From the IMG/VR virus record IMGVR_UViG_3300008121_000011: a stretch of 64,000 nucleotides of DNA; one strand, written 5' to 3'. A program made the position numbers and the translations under genes. How positions within the stretch are numbered: position 1 is the first letter of the stretch; each line of letters opens with the position of its first letter. A model generated the notes under the pieces. The model saw only the letters and a list, made by a program, of their open reading frames with translations, was not told where the DNA came from and did no database searches. Shown one piece after another: positions 1 to 54,655 of the stretch. This DNA comes from a virus.

Positions 1-120
1 CCTACAAAATTCAACCATCTGAAATTGTTGTTTGGGTAGGGAATGAATAACAGCCGCATAAGCTAAAATCATGAAGCAAGGTTAAACCCTATTATTAGCG
101 TTGAGTCAGCCCCTTGCAAC

Positions 121-12138: not shown

Positions 12139-12159
12139 TTTTATGATAAACTTTAATTT

Positions 12160-14844: not shown

Positions 14845-14948
14845 ATTAAGCAGCTACCAGCCCAGCTTTTTTGAAGACCCTAATTTTGTGCGCCGATACC
14901 CTACTTTGTAAACAAATATTAAGAGTTTAAATATTTTTGGTTTTGCTA

Positions 14949-14978
14949 TTGACAAAACCTATAGACTCGATCAATAAT
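14949..14978 (+). promoter_or_regulatory. Sigma70-like promoter (copy A of a ~60-bp repeat)
   Basis: TTGACA, an 18-nt spacer, then AATAAT. The block 14938-14998 is near-identical to the reverse complement of 42868-42928. It contains the inverted repeat ACTCGAT...ATCGAGT. Confidence 0.55.
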
Positions 14979-15001: not shown

Positions 15002-15397
15002 ATGAACGCCATGAACGCCAACCAAATCGCACAAATCGCAACCGCTTTAAACGTCTCTCCCAACCAAATCAAGAGAGCTGAGGAATGGGACAATGTCCTT
15101 TTTGTCGTAATCCACGGGAAGGGCGCTCGTTTTGTATCTAAGAAGAAGGTAATTAAAATGGATGTTTTGGCTCAAGTTGAATCAAATAATTTCGCGAGTT
15201 CCTACTCCGAGGTTTATGAGTGGCTCCTTTCTAATGCCAATCCTATCGGATGGACTTCTTCTTTTGTCGTAGCAATTGATGGCAGAAAATTTACTGTTAA
15301 AAACCTTGATGGGCGATGGTTTTCAACTGAATCAAAACCTAAAACGTCTTCTGACTTTAAGGGAATGATGAAAACAGGCGAAGAATCGGTTTTGTAA
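15002..15397 (+). CDS. Hypothetical protein (131 aa)
   Basis: First gene behind promoter A. Confidence 0.5.
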   Translation: MNAMNANQIAQIATALNVSPNQIKRAEEWDNVLFVVIHGKGARFVSKKKVIKMDVLAQVESNNFASSYSEVYEWLLSNANPIGWTSSFVVAIDGRKFTVKNLDGRWFSTESKPKTSSDFKGMMKTGEESVL

Positions 15398-15402
15398 AAA
15401 CA

Positions 15403-16071
15403 ATGAATTACTGCTACCTTTGCGCCGCCCCTAACGCTGATAAACCGTTAGTTCTCAAAGATTCATTCACTGCACATAGTAGCGCTAGATGCCCTGAGTC
15501 TAAGTATTTATGCGATCGCTGTGCATGGGTGATTCCGTTAAGGGCTTTTTATTGGAATGAAGCCAAGGGGAAATACAGCACATTATTTGCTAGGGGCTGG
15601 TCATGGCTCCTTTCTGCTGATGATGCGTATGGTTCTTATCCTAAATTTGGTAATCAACATACTGAGGGGGGGAACACGCTAGAAATAGTTGATCGCCTCC
15701 CCACACGCGCTCAAATCAGGACTTGGTTGCTTGATCCGCCAAAGCCGCCCTTTACTATTTGCATTGCGGAATCAGGGCAAAAACATATTTTGCCTTGGGC
15801 GCTAGAGGCAACTAATCGCGATTATTTCCCAGTGCAATTTGAGCTCGATACGTTGCATATATATCGATCTGCCTTTACGCATTTACTCGCACGGTACGAG
15901 GAGCTTATGGCTATGGGATTTAGCAAAACTGAAATTAATTCTGGCAACTATCGCTCTGACAAATTAGCTAAGTGCATCAGTGAGTACGCAGCATGTGAGG
16001 CTGCGATCGCTGCTAAGCGTGGTAATCGCTTGCTAGATTTGGTTAGCTATGTTGCAAAAGTATCAGAGTAA
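15403..16071 (+). CDS. Cys-rich (zinc-finger-like) protein, 222 aa
   Basis: The N-terminal Cys cluster is C5-x2-C8 ... C30 ... C38-x2-C41. See the findings for a speculative Csf1-like reading. Confidence 0.5.
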   Translation: MNYCYLCAAPNADKPLVLKDSFTAHSSARCPESKYLCDRCAWVIPLRAFYWNEAKGKYSTLFARGWSWLLSADDAYGSYPKFGNQHTEGGNTLEIVDRLPTRAQIRTWLLDPPKPPFTICIAESGQKHILPWALEATNRDYFPVQFELDTLHIYRSAFTHLLARYEELMAMGFSKTEINSGNYRSDKLAKCISEYAACEAAIAAKRGNRLLDLVSYVAKVSE

Positions 16072-20426: not shown

Positions 20427-20430
20427 AATA

Positions 20431-20466
20431 AGTAAGTTATATAGGGGCCTCCCTATATAACTTACT
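20431..20466. other. Perfect 16-bp-stem hairpin upstream of terS
   Basis: AGTAAGTTATATAGGG-GCCT-CCCTATATAACTTACT, with no U-tract. Confidence 0.5.
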
Positions 20467-20492
20467 AGGAATAAAGTAGACTACTTAACATT

Positions 20493-36465: not shown

Positions 36466-36567
36466 TTAGCTGTTAGCCCAAAAAACACCAAAAAGAGGAA
36501 CAACAAAAACTAAAACCGCAAAAAACAACCACATAAAAATGTCGAGAAATGCCCCAATGTTTTTCAT
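36466..36567 (-). CDS. Hydrophobic micro-protein (33 aa, single TM)
   Basis: MKNIGAFLDIFMWLFFAVLVFVVPLFGVFWANS*. Its ATG lies about 45 nt after the stop of the Gly/Tyr-repeat ORF, preceded by AAGGAAAGAAAAG. Confidence 0.35.
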   Translation of the reverse strand: MKNIGAFLDIFMWLFFAVLVFVVPLFGVFWANS

Positions 36568-36613
36568 GGAGTGCCAATTTTTCAGACATAATCTTTTCTT
36601 TCCTTGATAGTTG

Positions 36614-36925
36614 TTAGCCATAGCCATAGCCATAGCCAGAGCCATCGCCAGAGCCAGAGCCATCGCCATAGCCATAGCCAGAGCCATCGCCAGAGCCAGA
36701 GCCGTAGCCAGAGCCATAGCCAGAGCCATAGCCATAGCCAGAGCCATAGCCAGAGCCATCGCCATAGCCATAGCCAGAGCCATAGCCATAGCCATCGCCA
36801 TAGCCAGAGCCATCGCCAGAGCCATAGCCATCGCCATAGCCAGAGCCATCGCCATAGCCATGGCCAGAGCCATCGCCAGAGCCAGAGCCAGAGTCAGAGT
36901 CATAATCAGTATTTAGATCTTCCAT
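36614..36925 (-). CDS. Gly/Tyr/Ser/Asp low-complexity repeat protein (103 aa)
   Basis: The ATG at 36925 has a strong RBS (GGAGGTTGCTGT-ATG) and overlaps the upstream stop region. The product is MEDLNTDYDSDSGSGSGDGSGHGYGDGSGYGDGYG...GYGYGYG*. Confidence 0.5.
   Translation of the reverse strand: MEDLNTDYDSDSGSGSGDGSGHGYGDGSGYGDGYGSGDGSGYGDGYGYGSGYGYGDGSGYGSGYGYGSGYGSGYGSGSGDGSGYGYGDGSGSGDGSGYGYGYG
36617..36900. repeat. About 280 bp of degenerate hexanucleotide repeat (GCCATA/GCCAGA/GCCATC)
   Basis: Directly visible. It is open in several frames on both strands because of the 6-nt periodicity. Confidence 0.9.
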
Positions 36926-37200
36926 ACAGCAACCTCCGCGATTGAATCTTTCGCGATTTCTGTCACTGACAGAATTTCAATCACTTCAGTGACTATGATT
37001 CTGTCAACTTCCGCAGGAAATTTGCAATTACTAGGATCACTAGTTCCTGTTTGAGCTAGCTGAGAAAGGGATGCTGCCCCTGCCCATTTCCATAAACGCC
37101 GAGCGTTGCGTATTGTTGCTTGCTTACCTTCAAAAGCTTCAAGAAATCCCGCGAATACACCCGCGCTGTAAGTTCGCACAATTACATATTGATCAATCAT
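36913..37200 (-). CDS. Conserved-looking hypothetical phage protein (95 aa)
   Basis: ATG ORF (VIVRTYSAGVFAGFL...ARRLWKWAGAASLSQLA). Confidence 0.5.
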   Translation of the reverse strand: MIDQYVIVRTYSAGVFAGFLEAFEGKQATIRNARRLWKWAGAASLSQLAQTGTSDPSNCKFPAEVDRIIVTEVIEILSVTEIAKDSIAEVAVWKI

Positions 37201-38599: not shown

Positions 38600-38810
38600 T
38601 TTTTGTAACGTTGTAACACTTACATATAGAACGTATATACAGTAAGTATTTAGATGTGTTACAAGAAGTGTTACAAGGTGTATATTCAGTAATATTTTAG
38701 TAACGCATTACATGTATTTTTGGAAGTGTTACAAGTGTGTTTGAGGTTGTAACGCTTGTCTAACCTATACAGAGTATGCGATTAAGGTTAAGTGTTACAG
38801 TGTTACAAGG
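38600..38810. repeat. Iteron cluster (AAGTGTTACAAG / inverted TTGTAACACTT), putative replication origin
   Basis: At least 8 copies of the GTTACA/TGTAAC core lie in both orientations, for example at 38611-38621, 38655-38677, 38725-38736, 38748-38753 and 38791-38809. They sit in an AT-rich 365-bp gap next to the primase-helicase gene. Confidence 0.6.
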
Positions 38811-38873: not shown

Positions 38874-40961
38874 CTAGAAAAATTCATCATCATCACTCGT
38901 GCTGTTAAGGACAGGTGGAGGTGTAGTTGGACTTTTCCAAATATCCTGTCTAGTCGGATCTGATAAATTTGGATATCGCATAGGTGTTCGAGGTTGTACA
39001 GCGATCGGTACTTGCTTGGGAGTCATGGGATAAAGCGCTTTACCTTTATCGGTTAACATCCAAACACCAAAACGAGATCCTTGTGGTTTTTGCGACTCTA
39101 CAAGCCCTTTGTTTTTTGCGCGATGCATTGCAACTCTGAGTGTCGAAACTGTCGTAGAGCATCGAATAGCTAACTCATCAGCAGGCATTGAGCCATCCTT
39201 TAACACTCCTAAAGCTATAGAGGTTACGTCATCATGGATTTTTCCTGATTTTGTTTCCCCCAAATAGGAAAACACGCCCTTTTCTTTCCAGTCTTCAGTT
39301 TGATTAAATTCAAGATCTAAAAATAGCTTCTCGCTGTCCCTAGTTTTAGGCATTGTGAGCTTAAGCAAGTTGCAGTCTGGATTATCAGGGGCGGCGCTTT
39401 CTAATCTCCAGACTGCCCAAACAGGTGCGGTAATTCGCAAACTACCGCTCTCTGTTCCTGTTTTGTTAAGGTGATGGATTAACAAGCTAGCAGCGTTATA
39501 GTTGCCTAGTAGATCACGCAATCTATAAATTGCGTGTGCAAATTCAGCGTCGTTTTCGGATATGCCACTATTTAGGGTGATGGAAGTTAATGAATCAACT
39601 ACAACGAAATCAGGTTTAAACGTGTCTAGTTCCTGCTCTAATTGACGCAACATCTCAAGCCTGAAATTAGAGATGATTCGCACATTGTCACTAAATTCTG
39701 GTAGTTGATCCGTCCCCATTTCCCTAAATCTTTTGCGAGTTGTGCGATCGCTTTGATCGCCTGAAATAAACATCACCTTGCATGATTTCATTGCAGATTC
39801 ATTAAGAAAAATACTGCCCTCTCTAAGTAGTTTATGCATGAGAAACATTGCAAAAATAGACTTGCCTCGACCAGGAGAACCAGATAATAAAATCATCTCT
39901 CCGACTGCCATCATGTTAGATACCAGCCAATTAATTTCTGCATCGCCTTCATTCATGAAATCTTTAGCCGATCTGCTAACCATCGGGGCGGTATACATAT
40001 CAGCCGATTTAATGGCTACGCACTTATCAAAAGATGGTTTGTCAATCTTGTGAGCTAGCCTAATATCTCTAGCTAAGGTCATCTGCCTAATAGGATCTGT
40101 CTCAGCTAGCCAATACTTGATGCTTTGCTCTAGCTTTGTGTTTTCATCAATGTTGACATCAGGAGCGATCGCATCTCCAATGACTTCAGTTATTTTTGTG
40201 ACAGCATCTTGGATGGTCTTCTTGTCTGCACCGTCATTAATCCAGTCTGCGACATCCAAACCGCCGTTACTTGGTAAATGTTGCCAAAAGAAATTGTGGG
40301 GCGGGGCTAAAAGCTGTTTTAAAGGCGTTGATTTTGCCTCAAGAGCTAATCTAGCCTTAGTCATAAACTCAACGCCTGTAATGTCTCGATCTGGGCATAG
40401 CACAACCCATTTGCAAGCTGAAAGTATATCAATGTGTTCTTGGCTAAAAGTTTTACCGCGAATCGTAGTGGCAACAAAGCCCAAATCATTTAGAGCTTTC
40501 GCACAGCTTTCTCCTTCAACTAGAAATACATGACGTTCCTTGGCTGCGATTACAGCCTCTTGATTGAATAAGGGGAATGAAGTTTCTGGAATATCCCCCA
40601 AACCCGATCGCGTATTCCATTGACCTTCTCTAAATAAGTACGGATATACACCTTGTTTCTTTCCTTCAGCGTATTTCGTGATGACTTTGAGAACTGGTAT
40701 ACTGTCTCTTGTGTAAATGTACTCAATCGTCTTGTCAGGTCGTGGAGCCTTCTCTTCTACCTTCAACTTCAAAAACGGGAAACCTTCTTTGTCTGTTGTG
40801 TCTGTCTCTTCTAAATAATCAGGCAACAGCAAAGAATCCCTTTTTAACCTAGTACAAAGCACTCTAGAAGTATCACCAGTTCCGATCGTATAGCACCAAT
40901 CTCCTTTTAAACAAACAGGGCATGGATTTGACTTGGATACCCTTATTCTTTCAGCTAGCAT
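38874..40961 (-). CDS. Bifunctional primase-helicase (zinc finger + TOPRIM + RecA/DnaB-like P-loop + C-terminal wHTH)
   Basis: Contains 'CPVCLKGDWC', TOPRIM 'FLVEGESCAKAL'/'LCPDRDITG', Walker A 'GSPGRGKS' and Walker B 'FVVVDSL'. Confidence 0.8.
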   Translation of the reverse strand: MLAERIRVSKSNPCPVCLKGDWCYTIGTGDTSRVLCTRLKRDSLLLPDYLEETDTTDKEGFPFLKLKVEEKAPRPDKTIEYIYTRDSIPVLKVITKYAEGKKQGVYPYLFREGQWNTRSGLGDIPETSFPLFNQEAVIAAKERHVFLVEGESCAKALNDLGFVATTIRGKTFSQEHIDILSACKWVVLCPDRDITGVEFMTKARLALEAKSTPLKQLLAPPHNFFWQHLPSNGGLDVADWINDGADKKTIQDAVTKITEVIGDAIAPDVNIDENTKLEQSIKYWLAETDPIRQMTLARDIRLAHKIDKPSFDKCVAIKSADMYTAPMVSRSAKDFMNEGDAEINWLVSNMMAVGEMILLSGSPGRGKSIFAMFLMHKLLREGSIFLNESAMKSCKVMFISGDQSDRTTRKRFREMGTDQLPEFSDNVRIISNFRLEMLRQLEQELDTFKPDFVVVDSLTSITLNSGISENDAEFAHAIYRLRDLLGNYNAASLLIHHLNKTGTESGSLRITAPVWAVWRLESAAPDNPDCNLLKLTMPKTRDSEKLFLDLEFNQTEDWKEKGVFSYLGETKSGKIHDDVTSIALGVLKDGSMPADELAIRCSTTVSTLRVAMHRAKNKGLVESQKPQGSRFGVWMLTDKGKALYPMTPKQVPIAVQPRTPMRYPNLSDPTRQDIWKSPTTPPPVLNSTSDDDEFF

Positions 40962-42189: not shown

Positions 42190-42498
42190 CTATGTTTTTG
42201 TTAATTTCCGTTCAACCTTTGCAACAACTTGCCTGATGTTCTCAGGATCGCGCCCTAGCTTTTCGGCTGTTGCGACAACTTTGCGATCGCACTCGATCCA
42301 AGTTGTGTAAATCTCCCATTGCAAGGGAGTAATCCCAAAATACTTAAGCACAATTGCTTGTACTGTATGCGATGCGTTGTCGCCAATAGCGGCGATCGCA
42401 TCTCCTAAGATGGGGCTAAAACAGTAGGAATATGTTTTAGCCTTTATTTCGGGCGGTTTCTTAGGTCTACCGCCTCCGCGAGACCCGCCTCTAGGCAT
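42190..42498 (-). CDS. Putative HTH DNA-binding protein (102 aa)
   Basis: The ATG is at 42498 (MPRGGSRGGGRPKKPPE...). The C-terminal 'VATAEKLGRDPENIRQVVAKVERKL' resembles sigma region 4 / HTH. Confidence 0.4.
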   Translation of the reverse strand: MPRGGSRGGGRPKKPPEIKAKTYSYCFSPILGDAIAAIGDNASHTVQAIVLKYFGITPLQWEIYTTWIECDRKVVATAEKLGRDPENIRQVVAKVERKLTKT

Positions 42499-42862
42499 AA
42501 ATAACACCATCTGGATCGTCGGCTTCTACTTCTTCACCGTCTTCATTGCGAAGAGTTTTTACTTTTTCGGGTCTGAGTGAAGCCAGTTTAAAATCTTCTT
42601 GTAATACCTTGATTAAAGATGCAACTTCAGACTGAATGCCATACTTGAAGCCAAAATAACCACCTTTAAATTCGCTGTCAATTGCCTTGATCGAAAAGTA
42701 GCCATTGCCAAAGTAGACTCTAATTTCGTCATCTTTTTTATCCCATACACGAGCTCTTACAAAACCAGCAGCTCTGTTATGCCATTCAGATCCTTTTGAT
42801 TGATTCCAAAGAGTTTGTAATTTTTGTGCAAACTCTAAACCCGAAATTAGTTGTTGTGTCAT
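42491..42862 (-). CDS. Hypothetical protein (123 aa)
   Basis: First gene behind promoter copy B. Confidence 0.5.
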   Translation of the reverse strand: MTQQLISGLEFAQKLQTLWNQSKGSEWHNRAAGFVRARVWDKKDDEIRVYFGNGYFSIKAIDSEFKGGYFGFKYGIQSEVASLIKVLQEDFKLASLRPEKVKTLRNEDGEEVEADDPDGVIYA

Positions 42863-42893
42863 TGCTTTGTTCCTTTGTTTAACTCAATAACCT

Positions 42894-42922
42894 ATTATTG
42901 ATCACCCTATAGGTTTTGTCAA
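42894..42922 (-). promoter_or_regulatory. Sigma70-like promoter (copy B of the ~60-bp repeat)
   Basis: The minus strand reads TTGACA (42922-42917), a 17-nt spacer, then AATAAT (42899-42894). The block 42868-42928 is the near-identical inverted copy of 14938-14998. Confidence 0.55.
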
Positions 42923-42951
42923 TAGCAAAACCAAACTATTTTTATAGACAC

Positions 42952-42979
42952 AAAAAAATCCGTCGCGGGCGCAACGGAT
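42952..42979 (-). terminator. Rho-independent terminator ending the Cas-like operon
   Basis: The minus strand reads ATCCGT-(TGCGCCCGCG)-ACGGAT-T7, 18 nt after the stop at 42997. Confidence 0.6.
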
Positions 42980-42996
42980 GGGGGCGTGAGGTTAGT

Positions 42997-43584
42997 TTAT
43001 TCAAAAAACCCGCATCCTAGATGTTTGCGACCTCCCAACCCTTTCTCTTGTAATACCAAAGACTCGTTAGGGCGCAAATCTGAAAACATTACAGGGTATA
43101 CAGCACACGGCTGCTTTTTAATAATTAGCTGCTCTTTGCGCCCTATTGTTGGCAGTGTATTAATATCAAACTTTGCTAGTTGCTTGCCTAGCGACACCGC
43201 AAACCTAGTAAGATCGGGTTCACGATTGTTGTCGGTTTTAATTGATACCCAAGCCGCTAGATTCTCTTGAGATTTTAGCTCTGTGCCATTAACCAGCTTG
43301 AGTTTAATCAACTCTTTGCCTAAATGGATTTGACAATCAAAAAGCATCGTTAGCTCTGTAATTAAATCTTTGGAGCAACGTAGCTTTATATTGCTTTGAG
43401 TTAAACGTAATGTGCGATCGTCAAAAATATTTGTGTTACTGATTCTACCGATCGCCCACTCAGGGTTATCTTTGAACTTAGGAGATAAGCTGGTCAGCGC
43501 TGAATATAAGCAATAGTGATAATTCCGTGGGATTAACGCCCCTTCAATACTGAATAAAAATTCTATAAAATTGCAGTTAGGCAT
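42997..43584 (-). CDS. Cas6-like RAMP endoribonuclease (195 aa)
   Basis: The C-terminal glycine-rich loop 'GLGGRKHLGCGFFE' is of the Cas6e/Cmx6 type (G.G..K.fGcG). Its size and beta-rich layout fit Cas6. The start overlaps the cupin stop by 8 nt. Confidence 0.45.
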   Translation of the reverse strand: MPNCNFIEFLFSIEGALIPRNYHYCLYSALTSLSPKFKDNPEWAIGRISNTNIFDDRTLRLTQSNIKLRCSKDLITELTMLFDCQIHLGKELIKLKLVNGTELKSQENLAAWVSIKTDNNREPDLTRFAVSLGKQLAKFDINTLPTIGRKEQLIIKKQPCAVYPVMFSDLRPNESLVLQEKGLGGRKHLGCGFFE

Positions 43585-43936
43585 TGATAATCACCAATCT
43601 TTTTTCACTATCTACAGGTTGATGCTTGTTTGCAATAGATAAAAGAAAAAGCCCGTCATTTCCAGCCCTTACCCTATGAGGTTGCGAACCTTCAACAAAA
43701 TAGCAAGTTCCTTTGATGATTGGTTGTGTTTCATCGCCGCAATCAATCCATCCAGACCCCTCTACTCCAAACAAAATATGATCACCCTCATGGGTATGAA
43801 GAGAAGTTTTTTCATTAGGTGCAAAATTCAACATATCAGCAGCAAAGTTATCTTTTTTTACCAGTGGCAATCCGACAGCTTGACTGCCATGCATCTGATA
43901 CCAGTAATCAGCATCTAAATAATTTTTAATTTGCAT
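43577..43936 (-). CDS. Cupin-domain protein (119 aa)
   Basis: Cupin motif 1 is 'SLHTHEGDHILFGVEGSG' and motif 2 is 'GTCYFVEGSQPHRVRAGN'. Confidence 0.75.
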   Translation of the reverse strand: MQIKNYLDADYWYQMHGSQAVGLPLVKKDNFAADMLNFAPNEKTSLHTHEGDHILFGVEGSGWIDCGDETQPIIKGTCYFVEGSQPHRVRAGNDGLFLLSIANKHQPVDSEKRLVIINA

Positions 43937-44594
43937 ACAACAATCCTTTTAGGTATTCAAAATATTCTGGGGCGATCGCTCGAAACTCTTCTAATCTTGC
44001 AGCTTGATATTGATTGTTAGTATTTTTGCTGACATGATCTGTAGTTCGTTTTGCGCCTAAATCATAGGCTTTTAGGTATGGTAATTCATGGGAAAGCGTA
44101 TAAGCCCAAATATCGTTTTCACTCCAATTAAAAACAGGGCAAGCTCTGTAATCTCCTTTTTTGTATTGATAGATAGCGCCATTTTTTAGCAAGGTTGCTT
44201 TACGTTTTGCGCTTTCTTCTATCCGCAATCCAACAAAAGCGACTGGATAATCAATCCATAATTTTTGTGACTTAACTTTGTTAGGGACATGATCACCTTG
44301 CATTAAAATAGTTTGAATGTTTAGCCCAAATTTGTCCTGATATTTTGATTCTGTTTCAGCATAGTTACTAATCATTTCTCTTTCATAATGTCCAAAAGAA
44401 ATAGCCAAAATATTAGGACAAATCGACTGCACTAAATGAAGCATTACGACTGAATCTTTACCCCATGACACCGCAACATAAGAAGGAGCGATCGCTAAAG
44501 CCTCTCGAATAATCTCTTTAGCTTTCTCAACTTTGCGCTTAAACGTTGGCAGTGTCGCGTGAGCCAAGAATGCATCGCGTTCTATTCTCTCCAT
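43926..44594 (-). CDS. PAPS-reductase-family (CysH-like) PP-loop protein
   Basis: The PP-loop is 'VSWGKDS' (SGGKDS-type), with 'FVGLRIEESAKRK' and 'PVFNWSENDIWAY', all typical of the family. Confidence 0.75.
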   Translation of the reverse strand: MERIERDAFLAHATLPTFKRKVEKAKEIIREALAIAPSYVAVSWGKDSVVMLHLVQSICPNILAISFGHYEREMISNYAETESKYQDKFGLNIQTILMQGDHVPNKVKSQKLWIDYPVAFVGLRIEESAKRKATLLKNGAIYQYKKGDYRACPVFNWSENDIWAYTLSHELPYLKAYDLGAKRTTDHVSKNTNNQYQAARLEEFRAIAPEYFEYLKGLLYAN

Positions 44595-45268
44595 ACATTA
44601 TCCGTAGGCATATAGCATATAGTTCTATTGGATTGCAGAAAATACGGTGTTCGCCACCCCCAGTTCATCATATTGATAGATTGAGGCTGTGGAATCATAT
44701 TAATTGGCATTGGTCGGGCTAACCTATCACCTCTCCACAAATGCCAATCATGTTCAAAGGGTAGTACTTCCCATTTGTGTACCTGTCCGCAACCTTGCGA
44801 TCGCTTCTTACCAAGATGCGTAACATTTAGAATTAGTTCGCTAATCTTGTCAGCATTGCCAATCGCAAACCAGTGTATAGTCTGCATTTCGCGATCATAT
44901 CGTGGTAAATCATAGGCTTTAAAATGCCCTTGCGAACTATCAACCTTAGCTTTCTTTTTACCCCAATCAAGGTGTAGTTCTTGCTTGTCCCATCGCTTAC
45001 GGTAACGCTGAGTTTGTTGATGATTTTCGATGTAGTGTGGTGAACTCACGGCCCAATACCACTCGCCTTTGAGCGTCTTCCGAGCGATCGGCATTTCATC
45101 AAAAATCAAGGGCAGATTCTTTTCGGCATCCGCAGCCGTTGGATTGGGCGTGATTAACCCTAATTGGTCTAACAATTGATACTCAATCAGAGCATCAAAG
45201 CTCGGACTCCAATCATCATAGGCAACTAGCGGCGTTGCCATGTGTGCAATTATTTGGAGATTATCCAT
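44582..45268 (-). CDS. csf3: Cas5-like RAMP protein (Csf3-like)
   Basis: The N-terminus is 'AHMATPLVAYDDWSPSFDALIEYQLL' and the G-rich loop is 'LGKKRSQGCGQVHKWEV'. It lies immediately downstream of the Cas7-like gene (8-nt overlap). Confidence 0.45.
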   Translation of the reverse strand: MDNLQIIAHMATPLVAYDDWSPSFDALIEYQLLDQLGLITPNPTAADAEKNLPLIFDEMPIARKTLKGEWYWAVSSPHYIENHQQTQRYRKRWDKQELHLDWGKKKAKVDSSQGHFKAYDLPRYDREMQTIHWFAIGNADKISELILNVTHLGKKRSQGCGQVHKWEVLPFEHDWHLWRGDRLARPMPINMIPQPQSINMMNWGWRTPYFLQSNRTICYMPTDNVWRE

Positions 45269-46466
45269 TGAGTAAACTCCTAATATCGCTCTTAGAATCA
45301 GCTAGAAACCCTTTGTAATCTTCAAGATATTCTTTGTACCTTGCATGAGATTCAGAGGCGCGATCGCTTAGTTTTTGAGCGTGAGGTGTAATCGTCATAA
45401 ACTCACCGCGATCGCCGTCAGCGGTCTCAAACCAAAACTGCATAGAGCATAGTCCGCAACCCGTTCCTGATTGACCGCCCAAGTATGGCGATTCTGCAAA
45501 CTTGAGTAAAGCATCTGCAATAAATCCTTCCTCAATTCTGGTTACGTTGGCACTCCAAAAACTGTAGAGAGTCGCACCTGTTTGTAAAAGCCAATTACCC
45601 ATGATCATTTGTTGGCTTTTCTCTTTTTCAGGCTTTGCTTTTTCGCCTTTCCCTTTCTTGGTTTCAGGCTCCGAAACAATGCCAAATAAATCGCCTTGAG
45701 TCAGCATCTTTGGAGATTCTGGAGTAGCGCCAATTAGATGTTTTGCAAAGTTAGGATCATGCAATGAATCGCGCCTTGTCTTTTGGCTATAGGTAAGCCA
45801 ATCGGAATAATATCGAAGCTTCTCACCTAAAAATGGCATCCATTCAGCAAGCAATGCCTTTAGATTGTATTGAGAAACCTTGGTATCAATTCCTAGCCAT
45901 TGATTCACTCGTTGACTATGCTGTAAGTCTTTACCATCAATAATCTGCTCTAGCGCTGAAATTACGTCAATAGGTAGCGCAGGAGGAAACTGTCGATAAA
46001 TATATTCAGCACTTTCTACACAAGCCAAATAAGCATCACCAACAGCGATCCGACCGTGCACCATTTGAGCATCGCCAACACCAAACAATCCTTTAGGTTT
46101 GGCAGTTCCTAGTACTGAGAGGCATGGCAAAAGCTGACGGATTTTTTTGTCCAAATCCAAATCATTACCCGTGCCACCATCGATCGCACCGCCGCAAAAT
46201 AGAGCGTGATGCATCGTTGGCGATACTTGCACACCAATCTGAGAGAGGAAAGAATCAATACCACAGCGTCTCAAAATACGATTGCGTAGCGAGTTACCAG
46301 AAAGACAAAACACCTCAGAGGGATTTCCCTCTAAATCTGTCACTTTCAACGTTCGTAAATTGGTTTGATTGCCTACAGACTCACTGATGTGGCTTAGCGG
46401 CTGCAACAGTGTAATTTGCAGGTGTAGCTTGATATTATGGCGATCGTGTGGGTTGTAATTAAGCAT
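45261..46466 (-). CDS. csf2: Cas7-like RAMP backbone protein (Csf2-like)
   Basis: Contains 'ITLLQPLSHISE', 'CLSGNSLRNRILRR' (the G.S.R..LR RAMP motif), 'LFCGGAIDGG', 'LSVLGT' and the C-terminal 'LGGQSGTGCGLCS'. A Lys-rich insertion KKGKGEKAKPEKEK is present. Confidence 0.55.
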   Translation of the reverse strand: MLNYNPHDRHNIKLHLQITLLQPLSHISESVGNQTNLRTLKVTDLEGNPSEVFCLSGNSLRNRILRRCGIDSFLSQIGVQVSPTMHHALFCGGAIDGGTGNDLDLDKKIRQLLPCLSVLGTAKPKGLFGVGDAQMVHGRIAVGDAYLACVESAEYIYRQFPPALPIDVISALEQIIDGKDLQHSQRVNQWLGIDTKVSQYNLKALLAEWMPFLGEKLRYYSDWLTYSQKTRRDSLHDPNFAKHLIGATPESPKMLTQGDLFGIVSEPETKKGKGEKAKPEKEKSQQMIMGNWLLQTGATLYSFWSANVTRIEEGFIADALLKFAESPYLGGQSGTGCGLCSMQFWFETADGDRGEFMTITPHAQKLSDRASESHARYKEYLEDYKGFLADSKSDIRSLLNG

Positions 46467-46983
46467 TGATAGTAGCCTCTACATCTAGAGTATTTTCTGT
46501 TTCTTCTGGAATATTCAAAGCGCGATCGCTTTCAAAGCGAACACGACAAAAAGTAGTAATAATGTGCGGTTTTGATTTGCACAAACTGAGGATATGTCGA
46601 TCGCTTATCCCTTCAGGCTTGAGGGAGTTGAGAATATCTTGCCATCCGAGCCATCGCAAATGTTGATCGCTATCAATTTGTTGAATGTCTCCCATGCTTC
46701 CATCTTCATTCACGGAAGCCCGTAAAATTACCTGTTTTGGCGCAATGATGCGAGTCCATTCTTTAGGATTGAGATGTGCAACGATTAGCTTTTTTGCCAG
46801 ATTCTCAATGTAATCATCAATACTTCTTGAGGGAATAGCAGCATTTTGGATACTACTCTGAAAGTATTCCCAAGTCTTCAAACCCATTGCAGGGCTTTTG
46901 CCTTTATCTCTACAGCGAAAAACCCAGTAACTAAGCGCACTGGCTAAAGCTGTAACCCTGTCTTCCGTTCCTATTCCATACAT
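46459..46983 (-). CDS. Hypothetical helical protein (174 aa) in the Cas11/small-subunit position
   Basis: Overlaps the Cas7-like start by 8 nt. No motif; assignment is by position only. Confidence 0.3.
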   Translation of the reverse strand: MYGIGTEDRVTALASALSYWVFRCRDKGKSPAMGLKTWEYFQSSIQNAAIPSRSIDDYIENLAKKLIVAHLNPKEWTRIIAPKQVILRASVNEDGSMGDIQQIDSDQHLRWLGWQDILNSLKPEGISDRHILSLCKSKPHIITTFCRVRFESDRALNIPEETENTLDVEATINA

Positions 46984-47011
46984 AAATATTTCTCGTACAT
47001 CTACGGTGTTT

Positions 47012-47356
47012 TTATTCTAGATCACAAACAGCATTCCAAGCCGCCAACTTAGCTTTACCGACAGACACACCACGCGTCCTAGCGTGGTCAAAAGCTTTAT
47101 TACGCAGTCTACTTAATTCCCGCTGTTTTAGCTCCTTTGGTGTCGCCTTACGTAGCTTAGGGATAGCGCGATAATTACCCTCAACGCATTCAATATGCAA
47201 GCGCCTGTTACCGTATGCGATCGCGCCTTGGTTAAGAAGTAAGCGCAATGCGCTCGTATTGATTTGCGTGCATATTTCAATGTAGCGCAAGGAGTAAGAG
47301 CCGCGATGGGCATCAAAGAAGCCGATGAGCTTGGCTCGTTCAATTTCTAGAGGCAT
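47012..47356 (-). CDS. Hypothetical basic protein (114 aa)
   Basis: Its ATG shares one base with the stop of the upstream P-loop gene. Confidence 0.45.
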   Translation of the reverse strand: MPLEIERAKLIGFFDAHRGSYSLRYIEICTQINTSALRLLLNQGAIAYGNRRLHIECVEGNYRAIPKLRKATPKELKQRELSRLRNKAFDHARTRGVSVGKAKLAAWNAVCDLE

Positions 47357-47928
47357 TATGGTTCCTCTAAATAATCTTCAACAAATTTCACCCGATCACC
47401 CAAATCCAAACAGTCCCTATGCAACTCCTTATAAGGCAAATTTAGATGATTGAGCATCCCTAAAAGCTGAGTATGCAACTTGAATATTAACGGTTGATTA
47501 ATCGCCGCTTTGTACTCACGCTCGACAAAAGGGATGGCAGGGGGAATTAATACAATTTTGTCAAAATACCGAGCCGTAACATTAAAGCAAGTTTGTAAGT
47601 AAACCATGACTCTTGACTGCATACGCTCGTTTAGTTCACCATTGCCAATGTCTGCTAATAGGTAAGCAACCATATCGAGAGGTGTGCGATCGCTAATAAA
47701 GCTAGGCTCGTCAACGTTAAACCAGATATTCCCAGTTTTATCTAAAATCTCCTCTTGTAAACGCAATCTAATAAAAATATCCAATTTGTCGGACGGGTGG
47801 AAACCATGTTGCAAAAACACACTACTCGCATCAATAGGGATATATGGAATCCCTAGCTTTTGCGATAAGGCGATTGCTAGTGTGGTTTTGCCCGTGCCAT
47901 GCGCACCGCATAATCCGATGTTAGCCAT
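47356..47928 (-). CDS. P-loop NTPase / small-molecule kinase-like protein (AAA_28/NadR-like)
   Basis: The ATG is at 47928 (MANIGLCGAHGTGKTTLAIAL). Walker A lies at the extreme N-terminus, with 'FISDRTPLD' and a ~190-aa size typical of nucleoside/nucleotide kinases. Confidence 0.55.
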   Translation of the reverse strand: MANIGLCGAHGTGKTTLAIALSQKLGIPYIPIDASSVFLQHGFHPSDKLDIFIRLRLQEEILDKTGNIWFNVDEPSFISDRTPLDMVAYLLADIGNGELNERMQSRVMVYLQTCFNVTARYFDKIVLIPPAIPFVEREYKAAINQPLIFKLHTQLLGMLNHLNLPYKELHRDCLDLGDRVKFVEDYLEEP

Positions 47929-48145
47929 TGTCTTCACCTCCAATATCAATTACTTCCTTGTCCAAGCACTGCATTATCAGTGCTAACTCGCCTTTTAGAT
48001 CTTCCAGTGTTGCGCCAACAGGTGTTACTTCTTTGTGACTCCAACTGGTTAATTCGCCCTTACTATTTGGGTAAAACTCGCGGATAGCAAGCACCTCATC
48101 GCCATTTTCAAGGGTTTGCTTTGAGATTCGATACGTCCAACTCAT
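47921..48145 (-). CDS. Hypothetical protein (74 aa)
   Basis: ATG ORF in the operon. Confidence 0.4.
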   Translation of the reverse strand: MSWTYRISKQTLENGDEVLAIREFYPNSKGELTSWSHKEVTPVGATLEDLKGELALIMQCLDKEVIDIGGEDNG

Positions 48146-48189
48146 TATTTAACCTCAGTTAACCTGTGAATAGTCCAATGTGTGGATCC

Positions 48190-48423
48190 TCATTTCAAAT
48201 CCCCAACAATCATCTCAAAAATGCTATGGGTGCAACAGCCCATAAATTTAAAATTATCTGCGGCGATCGGGTCAGTTGGATTACCGTCGGCATCAGTCCA
48301 AAACATTTGCGGTTTATATGGTTCGCCGTTTAGCGTGAACTCAATGCTTTCAATGTTCTGGCTATCCCAAAGAGCTTTTTGCGCTAGCCATGCTTGGATG
48401 TCTTCAATCTTGACGATCATCAT
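48190..48423 (-). CDS. Hypothetical protein (77 aa)
   Basis: ATGA-coupled. Confidence 0.4.
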   Translation of the reverse strand: MMIVKIEDIQAWLAQKALWDSQNIESIEFTLNGEPYKPQMFWTDADGNPTDPIAADNFKFMGCCTHSIFEMIVGDLK

Positions 48424-48662
48424 TCTTTACGCTCCTTATTCCTTAAATTAATTTCCTTGTCAGTAGCCAAAACCAGCACACTAGACCAAATACAGGTAAA
48501 GATCGCGATAAACAAAAGCCCCTTACCTAATGACTCCCATATGAACCAAAAGAAACCAGCGATCGGAATTAGTAAAACAAAGGCAATGGTTAAACACATG
48601 CCAGCGCCTAATTGATTTTCTTCTAGCTCTTTGTCAGTCTTATCTGCAAATAATCTAGCCAT
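48420..48662 (-). CDS. Membrane protein (80 aa, two TM segments)
   Basis: The hydrophobic stretches are CLTIAFVLLIPIAGFFWFIW and LLFIAIFTCIWSSVLVLA. Confidence 0.45.
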   Translation of the reverse strand: MARLFADKTDKELEENQLGAGMCLTIAFVLLIPIAGFFWFIWESLGKGLLFIAIFTCIWSSVLVLATDKEINLRNKERKE

Positions 48663-49192
48663 TACCCTTTACTCTCCTGTGTGTCTAAATCACCGTTATA
48701 CCGCCCTGTCTCTGAGTAATCATGCCTAGGATAAGCCGTCTCAGCAAATACGATTTGACCAATTCGCATAAGTGGATAAATAGGTTGCCAAGTCCAAAGA
48801 CGGTGATTTAGCAACTCTAAGGTCAGCTTTGAATTATTAAAACCACCATCAATCCATACTGCCAAAACGTGACCCCACCCTGATCGCCCTCTACTTGACT
48901 TAAGTCTAAACTCTGCTGAGTAATTACTCGGCATATTGAAAGTCTCGTAGGTACAAGCCAGAATAAAACTTAGTGGCGATACCCAAAACGGGTTTGATTC
49001 TGAGTACTTGGTTAAGTCGTGAGTAGTAAACTCTTGACCTGTTAGACCTCGTTTAAGCCAGTTGTTCTCAGTTTTCAGCGTGTAGCCTATCCGCACATCG
49101 AGTGATTGTGGGTTAAGCATTGCTTTGTCAAATGGCACGATAACGCCTTTTTCTTCGCAAAGCTTTTCGATTTCGTGGTCAACTAGCGTCAT
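48662..49192 (-). CDS. dcd: dCTP deaminase family protein
   Basis: 'LNPQSLDVRIG', 'ILACTYETFNMP', 'RLKSSRGRSG', 'WIDGGFNNSKLTLELLN' and 'MRIGQIVF' are collinear with E. coli Dcd. Confidence 0.75.
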   Translation of the reverse strand: MTLVDHEIEKLCEEKGVIVPFDKAMLNPQSLDVRIGYTLKTENNWLKRGLTGQEFTTHDLTKYSESNPFWVSPLSFILACTYETFNMPSNYSAEFRLKSSRGRSGWGHVLAVWIDGGFNNSKLTLELLNHRLWTWQPIYPLMRIGQIVFAETAYPRHDYSETGRYNGDLDTQESKG

Positions 49193-49525: not shown

Positions 49526-49726
49526 CTAAAGCCTCTTTACCTTAATCAAATCACCAATCTTGCAGTAAAGCACCGCACACAAAGCATCGATTAAATCGCG
49601 CTCTAAATACTCAAACCGATCTTGCTCAAGCCTTGATATCTTCTGAGTCGAAGTATTGCAAAGCTCTGCTAGTTGTTTTTGAGTTAACAATCGCGCCTTG
49701 CGTAAGCATTTTAAGTTTAGCTGCAT
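49526..49726 (-). CDS. XRE-family (Cro/CI-type) HTH transcriptional regulator
   Basis: The ATG is at 49726. 'LRKARLLTQKQLAELCNTSTQKISRLEQ' is a classic HTH_3 pattern. Confidence 0.7.
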   Translation of the reverse strand: MQLNLKCLRKARLLTQKQLAELCNTSTQKISRLEQDRFEYLERDLIDALCAVLYCKIGDLIKVKRL

Positions 49727-49950
49727 AGCTTTAGCTCCTGATATTTGCGCTCTAATTCTGGCAGTCCACACTCAAGATCACCATTGATGCTTAATTCAAA
49801 CCATTTACCAGTAAATTTAAAATACTCATACGAATATTGCTCTAACTGTTTATTCCAGCGAATATTAAGATTAGATTCAGTGCGTACATACACTTTATCT
49901 TCATACGCCAAAAAAGAGGTGGTAACTGTATTTTCTCTAATTATCTCCAT
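49717..49950 (-). CDS. Hypothetical protein (77 aa), first gene of the leftward operon
   Basis: The ATG is at 49950 (MEIIRENTV...). Confidence 0.4.
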   Translation of the reverse strand: MEIIRENTVTTSFLAYEDKVYVRTESNLNIRWNKQLEQYSYEYFKFTGKWFELSINGDLECGLPELERKYQELKLCS

Positions 49951-54377: not shown

Positions 54378-54655
54378 TGCACTAGCTCCACCAACTCGCA
54401 TTCATAAGCAAAAAGATTGTCAGCAATCTCACCCTGACTAGAACCGCCTTTTGCTAAATAATCAAAACAACGCTCTGATGCGATCGCTGATTCTGGTAGC
54501 TGATAAACTTTATTGCCAATATATGCAAAGTGTTGGGTAACGTGAGCATCAGTATAACCCATCTCTCGCAAGGCAAGAGCTAATGGTGACTTACTAGGAT
54601 ACTTTGCGGCGGCGATGTGCGCGGCGGTTACAGACACTTTGATTGTACTTAGCAT
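54374..54655 (-). CDS. Hypothetical protein (93 aa)
   Basis: Coupled ORF. Confidence 0.45.
   Translation of the reverse strand: MLSTIKVSVTAAHIAAAKYPSKSPLALALREMGYTDAHVTQHFAYIGNKVYQLPESAIASERCFDYLAKGGSSQGEIADNLFAYECELVELVQ

Follow-up and report, generated by a model that had tools for sequence, protein, structure and literature searches.

A type IV-B-like CRISPR-Cas module with added Cas6 and cupin genes in a freshwater cyanophage

INTRODUCTION

Phage-borne type IV-B CRISPR-Cas loci are already known. Type IV-B loci that contain Cas6 have been described as rare exceptions, with 12 instances (Pinilla-Redondo et al., PMC7038947), and an Actinomyces plasmid pairs a IV-B locus with a Cas12b3 mini-array (PMC12669027). 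The sole IV-B complex that has been studied bound heterogeneous non-CRISPR RNA (PMC7937560, PMC8175902), and the IV-B CysH-like protein is viewed in reviews as an inactivated reductase (PMC11656645); both points count against the explanation we favor below. Here, we describe a complete and selectively maintained type IV-B-like module with an added Cas6 and cupin, carried by a freshwater cyanophage and located in a 64,000-nucleotide stretch of IMG/VR record IMGVR_UViG_3300008121_000011 (the window). The gene combination was at first thought to be undescribed; this does not hold for IV-B with Cas6 (PMC7038947) but does for the cupin, as our literature search found no description of IV-B combined with one. 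Loci used for comparison are given as L numbers.

RESULTS

The operon and its surroundings. The module's main operon consists of six overlapping ORFs on the minus strand (Table 1), and the overlaps of 8, 8, 13, 11, and 8 nt in the ORF list, like the gene coordinates, match the original prediction exactly. All of the motifs that had been quoted are present in the translations, both those of the 401-aa protein (CLSGNSLRNRILRR, LFCGG, LSVLGT, and LGGQSGTGCG) and those of the other operon products (LGKKRSQGCGQV, VSWGKDS, GLRIEES, and GLGGRKHLGCGFFE), and HMM searches returned matches for all six proteins, upholding their assignment as type IV Cas11, Cas7, Cas5, CysH-like protein, cupin, and Cas6. 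A hairpin with a T-run was found where a terminator had been noted; its stem shows compensatory changes among relatives and the hairpin is missing from L027, so we regard it as an ordinary terminator. The XRE, dcd, and P-loop kinase genes expected upstream were each recovered by family match. A 114-aa ORF that keeps its position immediately upstream of cas11 in the close relatives L004 to L014, L021, L023, and L024 (91 to 97% identity) gave no match in family profile searches. All six operon genes are under purifying selection (dN/dS of 0.04 to 0.41 versus three relatives), and together with csf1 they make up seven module genes that are all intact in the window.

Table 1. Features of the module and its surroundings in the window
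Feature	Coordinates	Strand	Basis
HTH_26 gene, last 15 codons, cut by window edge	1..47	+	
Second copy of promoter-like 26-mer, upstream of 131-aa ORF and csf1	14939..14964	+	
131-aa ORF just upstream of csf1	15002..15397	+	
csf1 (222 aa), type IV large subunit, 27 kb from operon	15403..16071	+	PADLOC
Promoter-like element directly after operon terminator	42907..42932	-	TTGACA, 17 nt, AATAAT
Intrinsic terminator at operon end	42958..42979	-	Hairpin + T-run
cas6 (195 aa), Cmx6/type I-B-like	42997..43584	-	PF09559, TIGR02807, AF2 + Foldseek
Cupin (119 aa), putative partner of CysH-like protein	43577..43936	-	PF07883
cysH-like PP-loop protein (222 aa)	43926..44594	-	PF01507
csf3/type IV Cas5 (228 aa)	44582..45268	-	PADLOC, TIGR03116
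csf2/type IV Cas7 (401 aa)	45261..46466	-	PADLOC, AF2 + Foldseek
cas11-like small subunit (174 aa), first gene of module	46459..46983	-	PADLOC
114-aa ORF upstream of cas11, uncertain module member	47012..47356	-	
AAA_28 kinase-like gene upstream of module	47356-47949		Family match
dCTP deaminase (dcd) gene upstream of module	48662-49192		Family match
HTH_26/XRE gene upstream of module	49526-49771		Family match

The core proteins. The Cas11-like protein matched PADLOC typeIV_Cas11 (PDLC01696; E = 5.2e-13) and is 41% identical to the product of the gene preceding cas7 on the Gloeobacter plasmid pGMOR1. Csf2 matched PADLOC Csf2_0_IV (E = 3.7e-43) and scored just 26 bits against TIGR03115, under the cutoff of that model; Csf3 matched over its full length both PADLOC Csf3_0_IV (E = 2.2e-47) and TIGR03116 (E = 1.3e-17), the latter with 64 bits versus a cutoff of 140. 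AF2 models searched with Foldseek confirmed the Cas7 and Cas6 folds. The best matches of the Csf2 model (pLDDT 82.8) were type IV-A3 and IV-A1 Csf2 (E = 2.6e-13), followed by IV-B Csf2 7jhy (8e-7) and Csm3.

Cas6. Profile matches to PF09559 (E = 6e-33) and to TIGR02807 cas6_cmx6 (102 bits, over the cutoff of 98.85) were obtained for Cas6, and the top Foldseek match of its model (pLDDT 85.4) was the type I-B CAST Cas6 8fcu_B/8fcj_B (TM 0.81, E = 9e-15); among solved structures, the nearest is the Cas6 of a cyanobacterial type I-B Cascade, in keeping with a role as a subunit of the complex. Of the earlier label "Cas6e/Cmx6-type," the Cmx6/type I-B part is borne out and the Cas6e part is not. Whereas the canonical Cmx6 motif is P-x-D-H-G-Y, the window Cas6 has P-R-N-Y-H-Y, with the histidine shifted by one position, which makes its predicted catalytic competence uncertain. 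Its clade is small and distinct, with 3 cluster representatives at E ≤ 1e-30 in an exhaustive search, beyond which identity drops to 35% or less. More broadly, about 55 loci were informative, and about 26 of them have a Cas6 in or beside the IV-B operon, with at least nine different gene orders; these proteins, all PF09559, share only 26 to 38% identity with one another or with the window Cas6. On these comparisons, the association of Cas6 with IV-B is not accidental.

The CysH-like protein and its partners. The CysH-like protein matched PF01507 PAPS_reduct (E = 1.8e-17), carries the PP-loop variant SWGKDS, and is 40% identical to its pGMOR1 homologue and 59% identical to that of L092. As read from the translation, its C-terminal third contains no cysteine and thus no catalytic Cys of the ECGLH type. 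The cupin matched PF07883 Cupin_2 (E = 8.9e-9), and its HTHEGDH and PH motifs are kept across homologues. Among the IV-B loci surveyed, the cupin is restricted to Cas6-bearing loci and invariably lies beside cysH, as in pGMOR1, L034, L044, and L092; homologues also come after a different SGGIDS-motif protein in L091 and L093, among them a 61%-identical cupin in a setting without cas genes. Close relatives fill the cupin slot with a Coq4-like protein, a PTP phosphatase, or a DPPW methyltransferase-like protein, and when the partner is swapped, the C-terminal part of CysH differs too, with the first ~62 residues remaining identical. We infer that the CysH-like protein and the cupin form an enzyme pair.

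A displaced csf1. The original prediction held that the locus lacks an adjacent csf1; the gene is in fact present in the window, displaced by 27 kb. Its product matched PADLOC Csf1_0_IV (E = 6.6e-27), carries N-terminal CxxC...CxxC motifs, and is 77.5% identical to the operon-terminal Csf1 of L003 and 45% identical to the protein after the cupin on pGMOR1. The csf1 gene is a separate transcription unit from the six-gene operon. The promoter-like boxes behind the operon terminator sit inside GGTTTTG..CAAAACC, and this 26-mer has 2 matches in the window versus 0 expected, the sole other copy being that upstream of csf1. The element is found after cas6 in every relative, and in L027 this putative promoter drives a 104aa-60aa-csf1 unit. 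The 131-aa ORF before csf1 had no match to any family in profile searches; its homologues adjoin IV-B genes in L015, L016, L018, L022, L044, L053, and L063.

Carrier phage and relatives. As had been proposed, the module is carried by a tailed cyanobacterial phage: it encodes tape-measure, portal, TerL, and primase-helicase proteins, the HIP1 sequence GCGATCGC occurs 102 times in the window versus 0.46 expected, and the relatives, found among IMG/VR contigs and in bins of Pseudanabaena or Cyanobacteriota, agree with this host. The locus is a member of a large clade of freshwater-cyanophage type IV-B loci. Its architecture recurs across several metagenomes with 91 to 99% protein identity, and the IV-B core with Cas6 and cupin is also present in pGMOR1, L034, L044, and L092, where the same gene set is retained at 35 to 65% identity.

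CRISPR arrays. The locus had been called array-less, which is correct inside the 64-kb window, where TRF, a repeat search, a mini-array scan, and Rfam found no CRISPR array, and where no solitary repeat or conserved hairpin was found that could serve as a Cas6 RNA substrate; it is not correct for the phage. A near-identical contig (99.8 to 100% identity to window positions 1 to 11855) extends beyond position 1 and has a five-repeat array beside a Cas12f-like gene, 0.2 to 2 kb outside the window. Frame +2 of positions 1 to 47 reads YKIQPSEIVVWVGNE followed by a stop, the C-terminus of the HTH protein of L081, a contig 99.96% identical over positions 1 to 2765. In the near-identical contig, this HTH gene has the Cas12f-like gene and the array as its neighbors. 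The array repeat occurs in four IMG/VR contigs only, and a search of the metagenome collection revealed no array built from it.

DISCUSSION

For the mechanism, the RNA source, and the benefit to the phage, we infer the following. Cas6 would bind a hairpin-bearing precursor RNA, probably cleave it, and stay bound to the hairpin at the 3' end, the behavior of Cas6 in type I-B Cascade and type IV-A complexes; Csf3 would cap the 5' end, Csf2 and Cas11 would polymerize along the RNA, and Csf1 would complete a Cascade-like complex with neither nuclease nor helicase, which would bind complementary nucleic acid and not cut it. Together with its swappable partner (in this phage, the cupin), the CysH-like PP-loop protein would form an ATP-dependent enzyme pair that acts either on the nucleic acid held by the complex or on a small molecule. 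Because most Cas6-bearing relatives have no array in the DNA examined, the guide RNA would most likely come in trans from host CRISPR arrays; it may also derive from the phage's own five-repeat array. The phage would likely gain in competition with other mobile elements or by interfering with host defense. Besides the two literature points given at the outset, this explanation has against it that no RNA substrate was found in the window, that the Cmx6 motif is altered, that csf1 is transcribed separately, and that the array repeat has the shape and narrow distribution described below.

An anti-CRISPR role has already been discussed for IV-B (PMC7038947, PMC8175902): the phage Cas6 would cut host pre-crRNA and the IV-B proteins would trap the products in an inert complex, a sponge that would starve the type I or III effectors of the infected host. 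Such a role would fit the Cas6 family being shared with cyanobacterial type I-B/I-MYXAN systems, the operon lying within an early-type transcription unit with an XRE-like gene at its head, and most Cas6-bearing relatives having no array of their own in the visible DNA. It would, however, leave the near-universal CysH-like gene and its swappable partners without a role, and seven genes would be a very costly anti-CRISPR (PMC7038947). Moreover, outside its own small clade the phage Cas6 shares no more than 35% identity with any Cas6 and was therefore not recently copied from a host, and this analysis turned up neither a host nor a host repeat or host-derived repeat unit; we consider this role possible but unlikely.

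If the Cas proteins were a mere RNA/DNA scaffold for nucleic-acid or nucleotide modification, without guide specificity, the purifying selection on a sequence- and structure-specific Cas6 in many lineages would be left unexplained. The chemistry would fall to the CysH-like protein and cupin, tied to the neighboring dCTP deaminase and P-loop kinase. In line with this, dcd and the AAA_28 kinase-like gene precede the operon, a ThyX-like gene and AAA_28 lie immediately upstream in one relative, the phage also has Dam, a cytosine methyltransferase, and a radical SAM protein, CysH partner enzymes are exchanged as cassettes, a cupin follows another PP-loop-motif protein where there are no cas genes, and the RNA bound by the studied IV-B complex was non-specific. 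Still, the neighborhood may simply mirror the early-gene layout, and the sequence names no modification chemistry, leaving this reading improbable.

It is also quite improbable that the IV-B complex shares guides with the phage's type V-F-like locus, the five-repeat array (repeat GTGAAACTTCTGGTTAAGCGATCGGCTGATTGGAAG) being processed by Cas6 or the Cas12f-like protein and the nuclease-free complex silencing competitors with the same spacers. Both systems are encoded on the near-identical contig, and Cas12f-like genes with long arrays lie 1 to 7 kb from IV-B in distant relatives (within 10 kb in L048, L051, L052, L054, and L056 to L059), recalling the Actinomyces plasmid; in addition, no anti-repeat of ≥11 bp was found near the Cas12f-like gene and hence no obvious tracrRNA. 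Against this, no Cas6 is seen in the visible DNA of the array-bearing distant relatives, the repeat is missing from an 80-kb Cas6-bearing relative, so that Cas6 is independent of it, and two of the four repeat-bearing IMG/VR contigs keep the array and Cas12f-like gene with only fragments of IV-B. In shape, the repeat differs from the usual substrates of Cas6, as its hairpin extends to the 3' end and leaves no 8-nt single-stranded tag usual for Cas6 enzymes, and the spacers matched nothing in IMG/VR, in the window, or in the fetched loci.

A reading of the locus as a decaying and non-functional remnant, which the lone cas7 and cas5 fragments in related phages (L025, L026, and L067), csf1 fragments upstream of cas6 (L009, L014, and L035), and insertions and rearrangements in the region might suggest, is very hard to reconcile with seven intact genes, the low dN/dS, an architecture repeated across metagenomes, and a gene set kept from this phage to pGMOR1, and we dismiss it.

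The full explanation we prefer, which joins the identity of the module to a guide-RNA complex, a CysH/cupin enzyme pair, and a benefit to the phage, we hold with belief and doubt in about equal measure. A type IV-B module equipped with Cas6 offers a route to the RNA partner and the function of type IV-B systems.

Composition of the operon

Profile searches with PADLOC, Pfam, and NCBIfam models matched every family proposed for the operon and its expected partner (Csf2, Csf3, Csf1, Cas11, Cas6, PAPS_reduct, and Cupin_2), and the locus is described here by gene, with coordinates and model matches collected in the table. In the ORF listing, the six chained minus-strand genes lie exactly where the original prediction had placed them, with successive overlaps of 8, 8, 13, 11, and 8 nt, and all of the protein motifs it had quoted are present in the translations. 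The terminator after the last gene is a stem-loop with a T-run, and the genes expected upstream were recovered on the same strand (an HTH_26/XRE gene, a dCTP deaminase gene, and an AAA_28 kinase-like gene); it is plausible that the whole string down to cas6 is transcribed together.

The curated NCBIfam models for Csf2 (TIGR03115) and Csf3 (TIGR03116) scored far under their curated cut-offs, the latter with a full-length alignment (E 1.3e-17); because these models match only under cut-off, we regard both proteins as divergent members of their families. The proposed identities held up in structure prediction: type IV Csf2 chains ranked first for Cas7 and a type I-B Cas6 ranked first for Cas6. 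By Foldseek, the AlphaFold model of Csf2 (pLDDT 82.8) was nearest to type IV-A3 and IV-A1 Csf2, followed by the partial IV-B model of 7JHY Csf2 and by type III Csm3. The cupin scored 35.4 bits against Cupin_2 (cut-off, 27.2), and its HTHEGDH and PH motifs are kept in homologues. In the CysH-like protein, the PP-loop takes the variant form SWGKDS and the C-terminal third of the translation contains no Cys, which fits the IV-B "CasCysH" description (PMC8175902); in the literature, we found CasCysH only in a 2021 review. Among the ten proteins from 42491 to 49192, there was no family match to a helicase or effector nuclease, and the operon region has neither DinG nor an adjoining array, the pair by which type IV-A is recognized; across the window, the replicative primase-helicase was the one helicase seen. 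Neighboring ORFs of 114, 131, 123, and 106 aa had no family match in profile searches. The phage encodes the complete parts list of a type IV-B-like effector module, and the module is conserved.

Features of the phage genome and of related loci (window coordinates unless a locus is named)
Feature	Location	Strand	Length	Match or content
Six-gene operon	42997-46983	-
Type IV Cas11		-	174 aa	PADLOC typeIV_Cas11, E 5.2e-13
Csf2/Cas7		-	401 aa	PADLOC Csf2_0_IV, E 3.7e-43
Csf3/Cas5		-	228 aa	PADLOC Csf3_0_IV, E 2.2e-47
CysH-like		-	222 aa	PF01507 PAPS_reduct, E 1.8e-17
Cupin		-	119 aa	PF07883 Cupin_2, E 8.9e-9
Cas6		-	195 aa	PF09559, E 6e-33; TIGR02807 cas6_cmx6, above curated cut-off
Terminator	42979-42958
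Promoter-like 26-mer	42907-42932	-
Promoter-like 26-mer	14939-14964	+
csf1	15403-16071	+	222 aa	PADLOC Csf1_0_IV, E 6.6e-27
Primase-helicase	38874-40961
Radical SAM	18794-20038
Dam-type methyltransferase	34066-34977
Cytosine-type methyltransferase	53325-54401
dCTP deaminase	48662-49192
tRNA-3'-end-like elements	12040-12250			GGTTCGATTCC plus acceptor-like stem
Hexamer array	36563-36957			TAGCCA, 46 copies, higher-order period 42
Iterons	38641-38807			GTGTTACA type
Duplicated segments	10171-10233/11116-11178			97%
Duplicated segments	9871-9906/10774-10809			94%
Type V-F-like locus	L081:12022-14325			HTH regulator, Cas12f/V-U2-like gene, array
Type V-F-like locus	L071:15338-17367			HTH gene, Cas12f-like gene, array
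Array with Cas12f-like gene	L048:17713-21100
Array with Cas12f-like gene	L056:14179-18014
Array with Cas12f-like gene	L057:16366-19307
Array with Cas12f-like gene	L058:14215-20843
Array alone in fetched DNA	L054:16603-17071
Cas12f/V-U2-like gene alone in fetched DNA	L051/L052 ~19344-21119
Cas12f/V-U2-like gene alone in fetched DNA	L059:13606-14952
pGMOR1 type IV locus	L001:7026-12458			cas11-cas7-cas6-cas5-cysH-cupin-csf1
csf1 N-terminal fragment	L009:13065-13232
csf1 N-terminal fragment	L014:4810-5001
csf1 N-terminal fragment	L035:15002-15235
Csf1 peptide on Cas6	L027:1964-2005			MTNCYLCAAPNAEK
Cupin outside cas loci	L091:213-2342
Cupin outside cas loci	L093:6242-8369
tRNA-like element between repeats	L015:6598-6729		72 nt	two perfect 30-nt repeats

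csf1 lies in a separate unit

The original prediction had a core lacking an adjacent csf1, but the gene is present in the phage. Using tblastn with proteins of related loci, we located csf1 elsewhere in the window, 27 kb from the operon; its product is 77.5% identical to the Csf1 that closes the operon in a close relative (L003). Upstream of the gene come an ORF of 131 aa and a 26-nt promoter-like element, GGTTTTGCTATTGACAAAACCTATAG, of which the window has a single further copy, inverted and directly after the cas6 terminator. In another relative, L027, the same element after cas6 heads a 104aa-60aa-csf1 unit. The simplest reading would be that the transcription unit following cas6 is normally that of csf1, and that in this phage lineage the two were parted by a rearrangement between inverted promoter copies.

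Relatives and carrier

A search of the word-indexed database with Cas7 gave 202 homologues; most come from freshwater metagenomes, on contigs of 40-125 kb. We classified 57 loci from IMG/VR, two cyanobacterial MAG contigs, and one Gloeobacter plasmid, each fetched with 10 kb on either side of the match; the commonest gene order was the textbook cas11-csf2-csf3-cysH-csf1. The record of the plasmid, pGMOR1 of Gloeobacter morelensis, names only cas6, a reductase-family gene, and the cupin, so its type IV locus is unannotated in RefSeq.

The window carries tailed-phage genes (tape-measure, portal, large terminase, and primase-helicase), and HIP1 octamers occur 102 times where 0.46 would be expected. 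Its relatives come from IMG/VR, with some of the contigs binned with Pseudanabaena or Cyanobacteriota, and the deposited phage genomes of INPHARED gave no DNA or Cas7 protein match. Judging by where the genes in common lie on the related contigs, the carrier genome is probably circularly permuted and about 74-80 kb long. The radical SAM, methyltransferase, and dCTP deaminase genes suggest that the phage DNA is modified. The two tRNA-3'-end-like elements lie in a noncoding gap, and both ARAGORN and Rfam were negative for window 11700-12400; these elements, and the one between the L015 repeats, may be attachment-site remnants or an unrecognized small RNA. The TAGCCA array lies inside overlapping ORFs and on the minus strand would encode a Gly-Tyr-rich repeat protein. 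The iterons immediately downstream of the primase-helicase gene possibly serve as operator sites or mark an origin of replication. Two pairs of near-identical noncoding segments, about 0.9 kb apart, read on the minus strand as promoter and Shine-Dalgarno modules; a small-gene cassette may thus have been duplicated in tandem.

Cas6

Type IV-B is defined without Cas6 and arrays (PMC7038947, PMC8175902, PMC11656645, and PMC12669027), and it is chiefly through its final gene, cas6, that this operon departs from the definition. The product scored 114.9 bits against PF09559 (cut-off, 26.7) and 102 bits against TIGR02807 (cut-off, 98.85), and its AF2 model (pLDDT 85.4) has a double ferredoxin-like (RAMP) fold. 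The original prediction had likened its glycine loop to the Cas6e/Cmx6 type; the protein belongs to the Cmx6 family and is not Cas6e-like, its model lying closest to the Cas6 subunit of a cyanobacterial type I-B Cascade. The nearest solved structure is the type I-B CAST Cas6 of a Peltigera membranacea cyanobiont (PDB 8FCJ/8FCU chain B; sequence E 3e-10; TM 0.81 to 8fcu_B), which shares the G-rich C-terminal loop, conserved here as GLGGRKHLGCGFF; at about 25% identity, however, the phage protein is shorter, lacks the hairpin insertion before the last strands, and has type IV rather than type I partners. The N-terminal Cmx6 motif P-x-D-H-G-Y reads P-R-N-Y-H-Y in the phage clade, with the His moved by one position, and the solved I-B CAST Cas6 has N at the canonical catalytic His site. 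No repeat or solitary repeat unit that could serve as a cognate repeat RNA was found within the 64-kb window. The hairpin after cas6 was ruled out as a Cas6 site by its T-run, by compensatory changes, and by its absence in L027.

The clade of the window Cas6 is small, with three cluster representatives at E<=1e-30 in an exhaustive search; the Cas6 proteins of other IV-B loci are 26-38% identical to one another or to it, and all belong clearly to PF09559. Cas6 is present in about 26 of about 55 informative loci, many of which are near-duplicates of each other, and takes part in at least nine gene arrangements, standing after the cupin, Coq4-like, or methyltransferase-like gene, in the cas7/cas5 or cas5/cysH gap, or upstream of the operon, among other positions. 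Three loci have csf1 N-terminal fragments upstream of cas6, and the L027 Cas6 opens with a Csf1 N-terminal peptide. Both resemble recombination scars and suggest that Cas6 cassettes were inserted where csf1 stood.

CysH and its partner genes

The cupin was seen in the window type, in pGMOR1, and in L034, L044, and L092, each time adjoining cysH and each time in a locus that has Cas6. In relatives at 90-96% Cas7 identity, cysH has different neighbors: the cupin, a weakly Coq4-like gene (HDxxH), or a PTP-family phosphatase gene, which stands before cysH; in L027, a DPPW methyltransferase-like protein is encoded beside cysH. The CysH proteins of the cupin and Coq4-like variants are identical over their first ~62 residues and then diverge, to 55% identity overall. 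When the window is compared with three relatives (L007, L013, and L024), synonymous divergence amounts to 0.4-0.6 for cas11 and cas7 but falls to 0.03-0.17 for the four 3' genes (cas5, cysH, cupin, and cas6), so that the operon is a mosaic produced by recombination. Two phage contigs without cas genes (L091 and L093) also carry a cupin, 61% identical to that of the window, where it follows a 375-aa SGGIDS protein and a 214-aa protein, neither with a Pfam match; by its motif, the former may be a PP-loop enzyme. Taken together, the adjacency of the cupin, the swapping of partners, the divergence of CysH, and the pairing of the cupin with the SGGIDS protein suggest that the CysH-like protein acts with a small partner enzyme.

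A Cas12f-like gene and array in a near-identical contig

TRF, repeat searches, a custom repeat-pair scan, and Rfam revealed no CRISPR array or solitary repeat within the 64-kb window; a single repeat pair (38641/38699) is spaced as in an array, but it belongs to the iterons beside the primase gene and was rejected. A 30-nt repeat pair in L015 ending in GGGATTGAAAG was discarded as a mini-array, as its repeats flank the tRNA-like element and its motif is absent from the window. The description of the locus as array-less therefore stands for the window, but it very probably does not extend past its edge. A JGI contig, Ga0226817_10000011 (73.7 kb; L081), is 99.8-100% identical to window 1-11855, and the first 47 bases of the window code for the C-terminus of an HTH protein encoded on it. 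Directly past window position 1, this contig encodes the HTH regulator and a 581-aa protein matching Cas12u2 and Cas12f models at ~1e-104, in which candidate RuvC-like GLDFGV, IEDT, and NADNNAS motifs can be read. The array follows the Cas12f-like gene directly, ~2 kb past window position 1 and 45 kb from the IV-B operon, and has five 36-nt repeats (GTGAAACTTCTGGTTAAGCGATCGGCTGATTGGAAG) with spacers mostly of 35-37 nt. Given this near-identical contig, the phage genome very probably has a type V-F-like CRISPR locus with its array, starting about 0.2 kb outside the window.

In the metagenome collection, the repeat had no exact match as an array, and a shorter pattern of it gave 11 single matches, consistent with chance. 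No tracrRNA-like anti-repeat of at least 11 bp was found near the Cas12f-like gene. The spacers of nine arrays had no match in the window or the fetched loci, and in IMG/VR two spacers from the array of the phage itself matched nothing but that array. Cas12f/V-U2-like genes (622-627 aa) also lie no more than 10 kb from the IV-B genes in distant relatives, which keep the textbook IV-B order and show no Cas6 in the fetched DNA; long arrays, of up to 28 repeats, accompany such genes in four loci, and further loci have the array or the gene alone in the fetched DNA. The pairing of IV-B with a type V-F-like locus is therefore a recurrent one in these cyanophages.

Comparison with known systems

With type IV-B (e.g., the Mycobacterium sp. 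JS623 Csf complex, PDB 7JHY), the phage shares five components (Csf1, Cas11, Csf2, Csf3, and the CysH-like PP-loop protein without the catalytic C-terminal Cys), carriage on a mobile element, and a lack of helicase, nuclease, and adaptation genes. It differs in having Cas6 and a cupin in the operon, a distant csf1, and divergent sequences, in being a cyanophage rather than an actinobacterial plasmid, and in very probably having an array, though one beside a type V effector. Type IV-A (Csf1-Csf2-Csf3-Csf5/Cas6 with DinG and an array; PDB 8RC2, 8RC3, and 7XG1) likewise has the Csf2 backbone, providing the best structural matches, a Cas6-family subunit expected on the crRNA 3' hairpin, and no nuclease; the phage, however, has no DinG or other helicase and no adjoining array, has Cas11 and the CysH-like protein, and its Cas6 belongs with the I-B/Cmx6 family rather than with Csf5 or Cas6e.

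Type IV-B is already known in prophages, lytic phages, and an archaeal virus with a mini-array. That virus, a Bathyarchaeia "Fuxiviridae" member (PMC10541130), also combines IV-B, a CysH-like gene, and a short array, but there the mini-array is part of the cas locus, with neither Cas6 nor a cupin reported, whereas the phage array flanks a Cas12f-like gene 45 kb away. The 2025 classification (PMC12669027, Extended Data Fig. 7) illustrates an Actinomyces conjugative plasmid that likewise unites IV-B, a type V effector, and a short array on one mobile element; its effector is Cas12b3, a V-B variant with a disrupted RuvC, whereas the phage protein matches Cas12f/V-U2 models. Part of the gene combination has been noted before: Pinilla-Redondo et al. 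2019/2020 (PMC7038947) counted, but did not analyze, 12 IV-B loci with Cas6 as rare exceptions. We found no paper on a cupin with IV-B. In contrast to those exceptions, Cas6 here is frequent in one phage clade, in many positions, and tied to a cupin or Coq4-like CysH partner. As far as we have checked, the Cas6-rich cyanophage clade, its swappable CysH partners, and its recurrent Cas12f-like neighborhood are undescribed.

Possible mechanisms

In the mechanism that we infer for the module, and hold about as likely as not, Cas6 would bind a hairpin RNA, probably cut it, and stay bound; Csf3, Csf2, Cas11, and Csf1 would assemble on that RNA into a nuclease-free complex, and the CysH-like protein and the cupin would contribute an ATP-dependent chemical step. 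The RNA would most likely come in trans from host arrays and, in this phage, possibly from its own array. The full proposal, that the cyanophage-clade IV-B is guide-RNA-dependent, with Cas6 loading crRNAs in trans from host or V-F arrays and CysH and a swappable partner (cupin, Coq4-like, phosphatase, or methyltransferase) chemically modifying the bound target with no cleavage or silencing, is very unlikely to be right in every part. Against the mechanism inferred above, the substrate RNA was not found, the His of the Cmx6 motif is shifted by one residue, and the only IV-B complex studied carried heterogeneous RNA (PMC8175902).

As rivals to the inferred mechanism, the module may be a sponge for crRNAs, which we consider unlikely, or a scaffold for modification that needs no guide, which is quite unlikely. 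It is decidedly unlikely that its guide RNAs are shared with the phage's type V locus: the L081 repeat folds into a hairpin reaching the 3' end, a form not typical of Cas6 substrates, no more than four IMG/VR contigs have the repeat, two of them keeping the array with IV-B reduced to fragments, and an 80-kb Cas6-bearing relative lacks it; neither repeat fold, repeat distribution, nor spacer matches gave evidence that this array is a IV-B or Cas6 substrate. Decay, as seen in the IV-B copies of relatives L025, L026, and L067, is highly improbable for the window copy, since all of its genes are intact, with dN/dS of 0.04-0.41 against three relatives, and the gene set is retained over 35-65% protein identity.

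Implications

Reviews from 2024 and 2025 leave type IV-B as the only common CRISPR-Cas subtype without a known function; its RNA partner and the part played by CysH are likewise unidentified. A clade with Cas6 beside the IV-B genes offers a direct experimental route, as the RNA bound by Cas6 would be the RNA on which the complex is built. Partner swapping, together with the occurrence of the cupin with a second PP-loop-motif protein outside CRISPR loci, points to a two-enzyme reaction of CysH rather than a dead reductase, and the recurrent co-occurrence of IV-B with Cas12f-like genes and arrays raises the possibility of guide RNAs shared by both. If the guide-dependent modification mechanism is true, cyanophage IV-B would be an RNA-guided, nucleic-acid-modifying CRISPR-Cas system.
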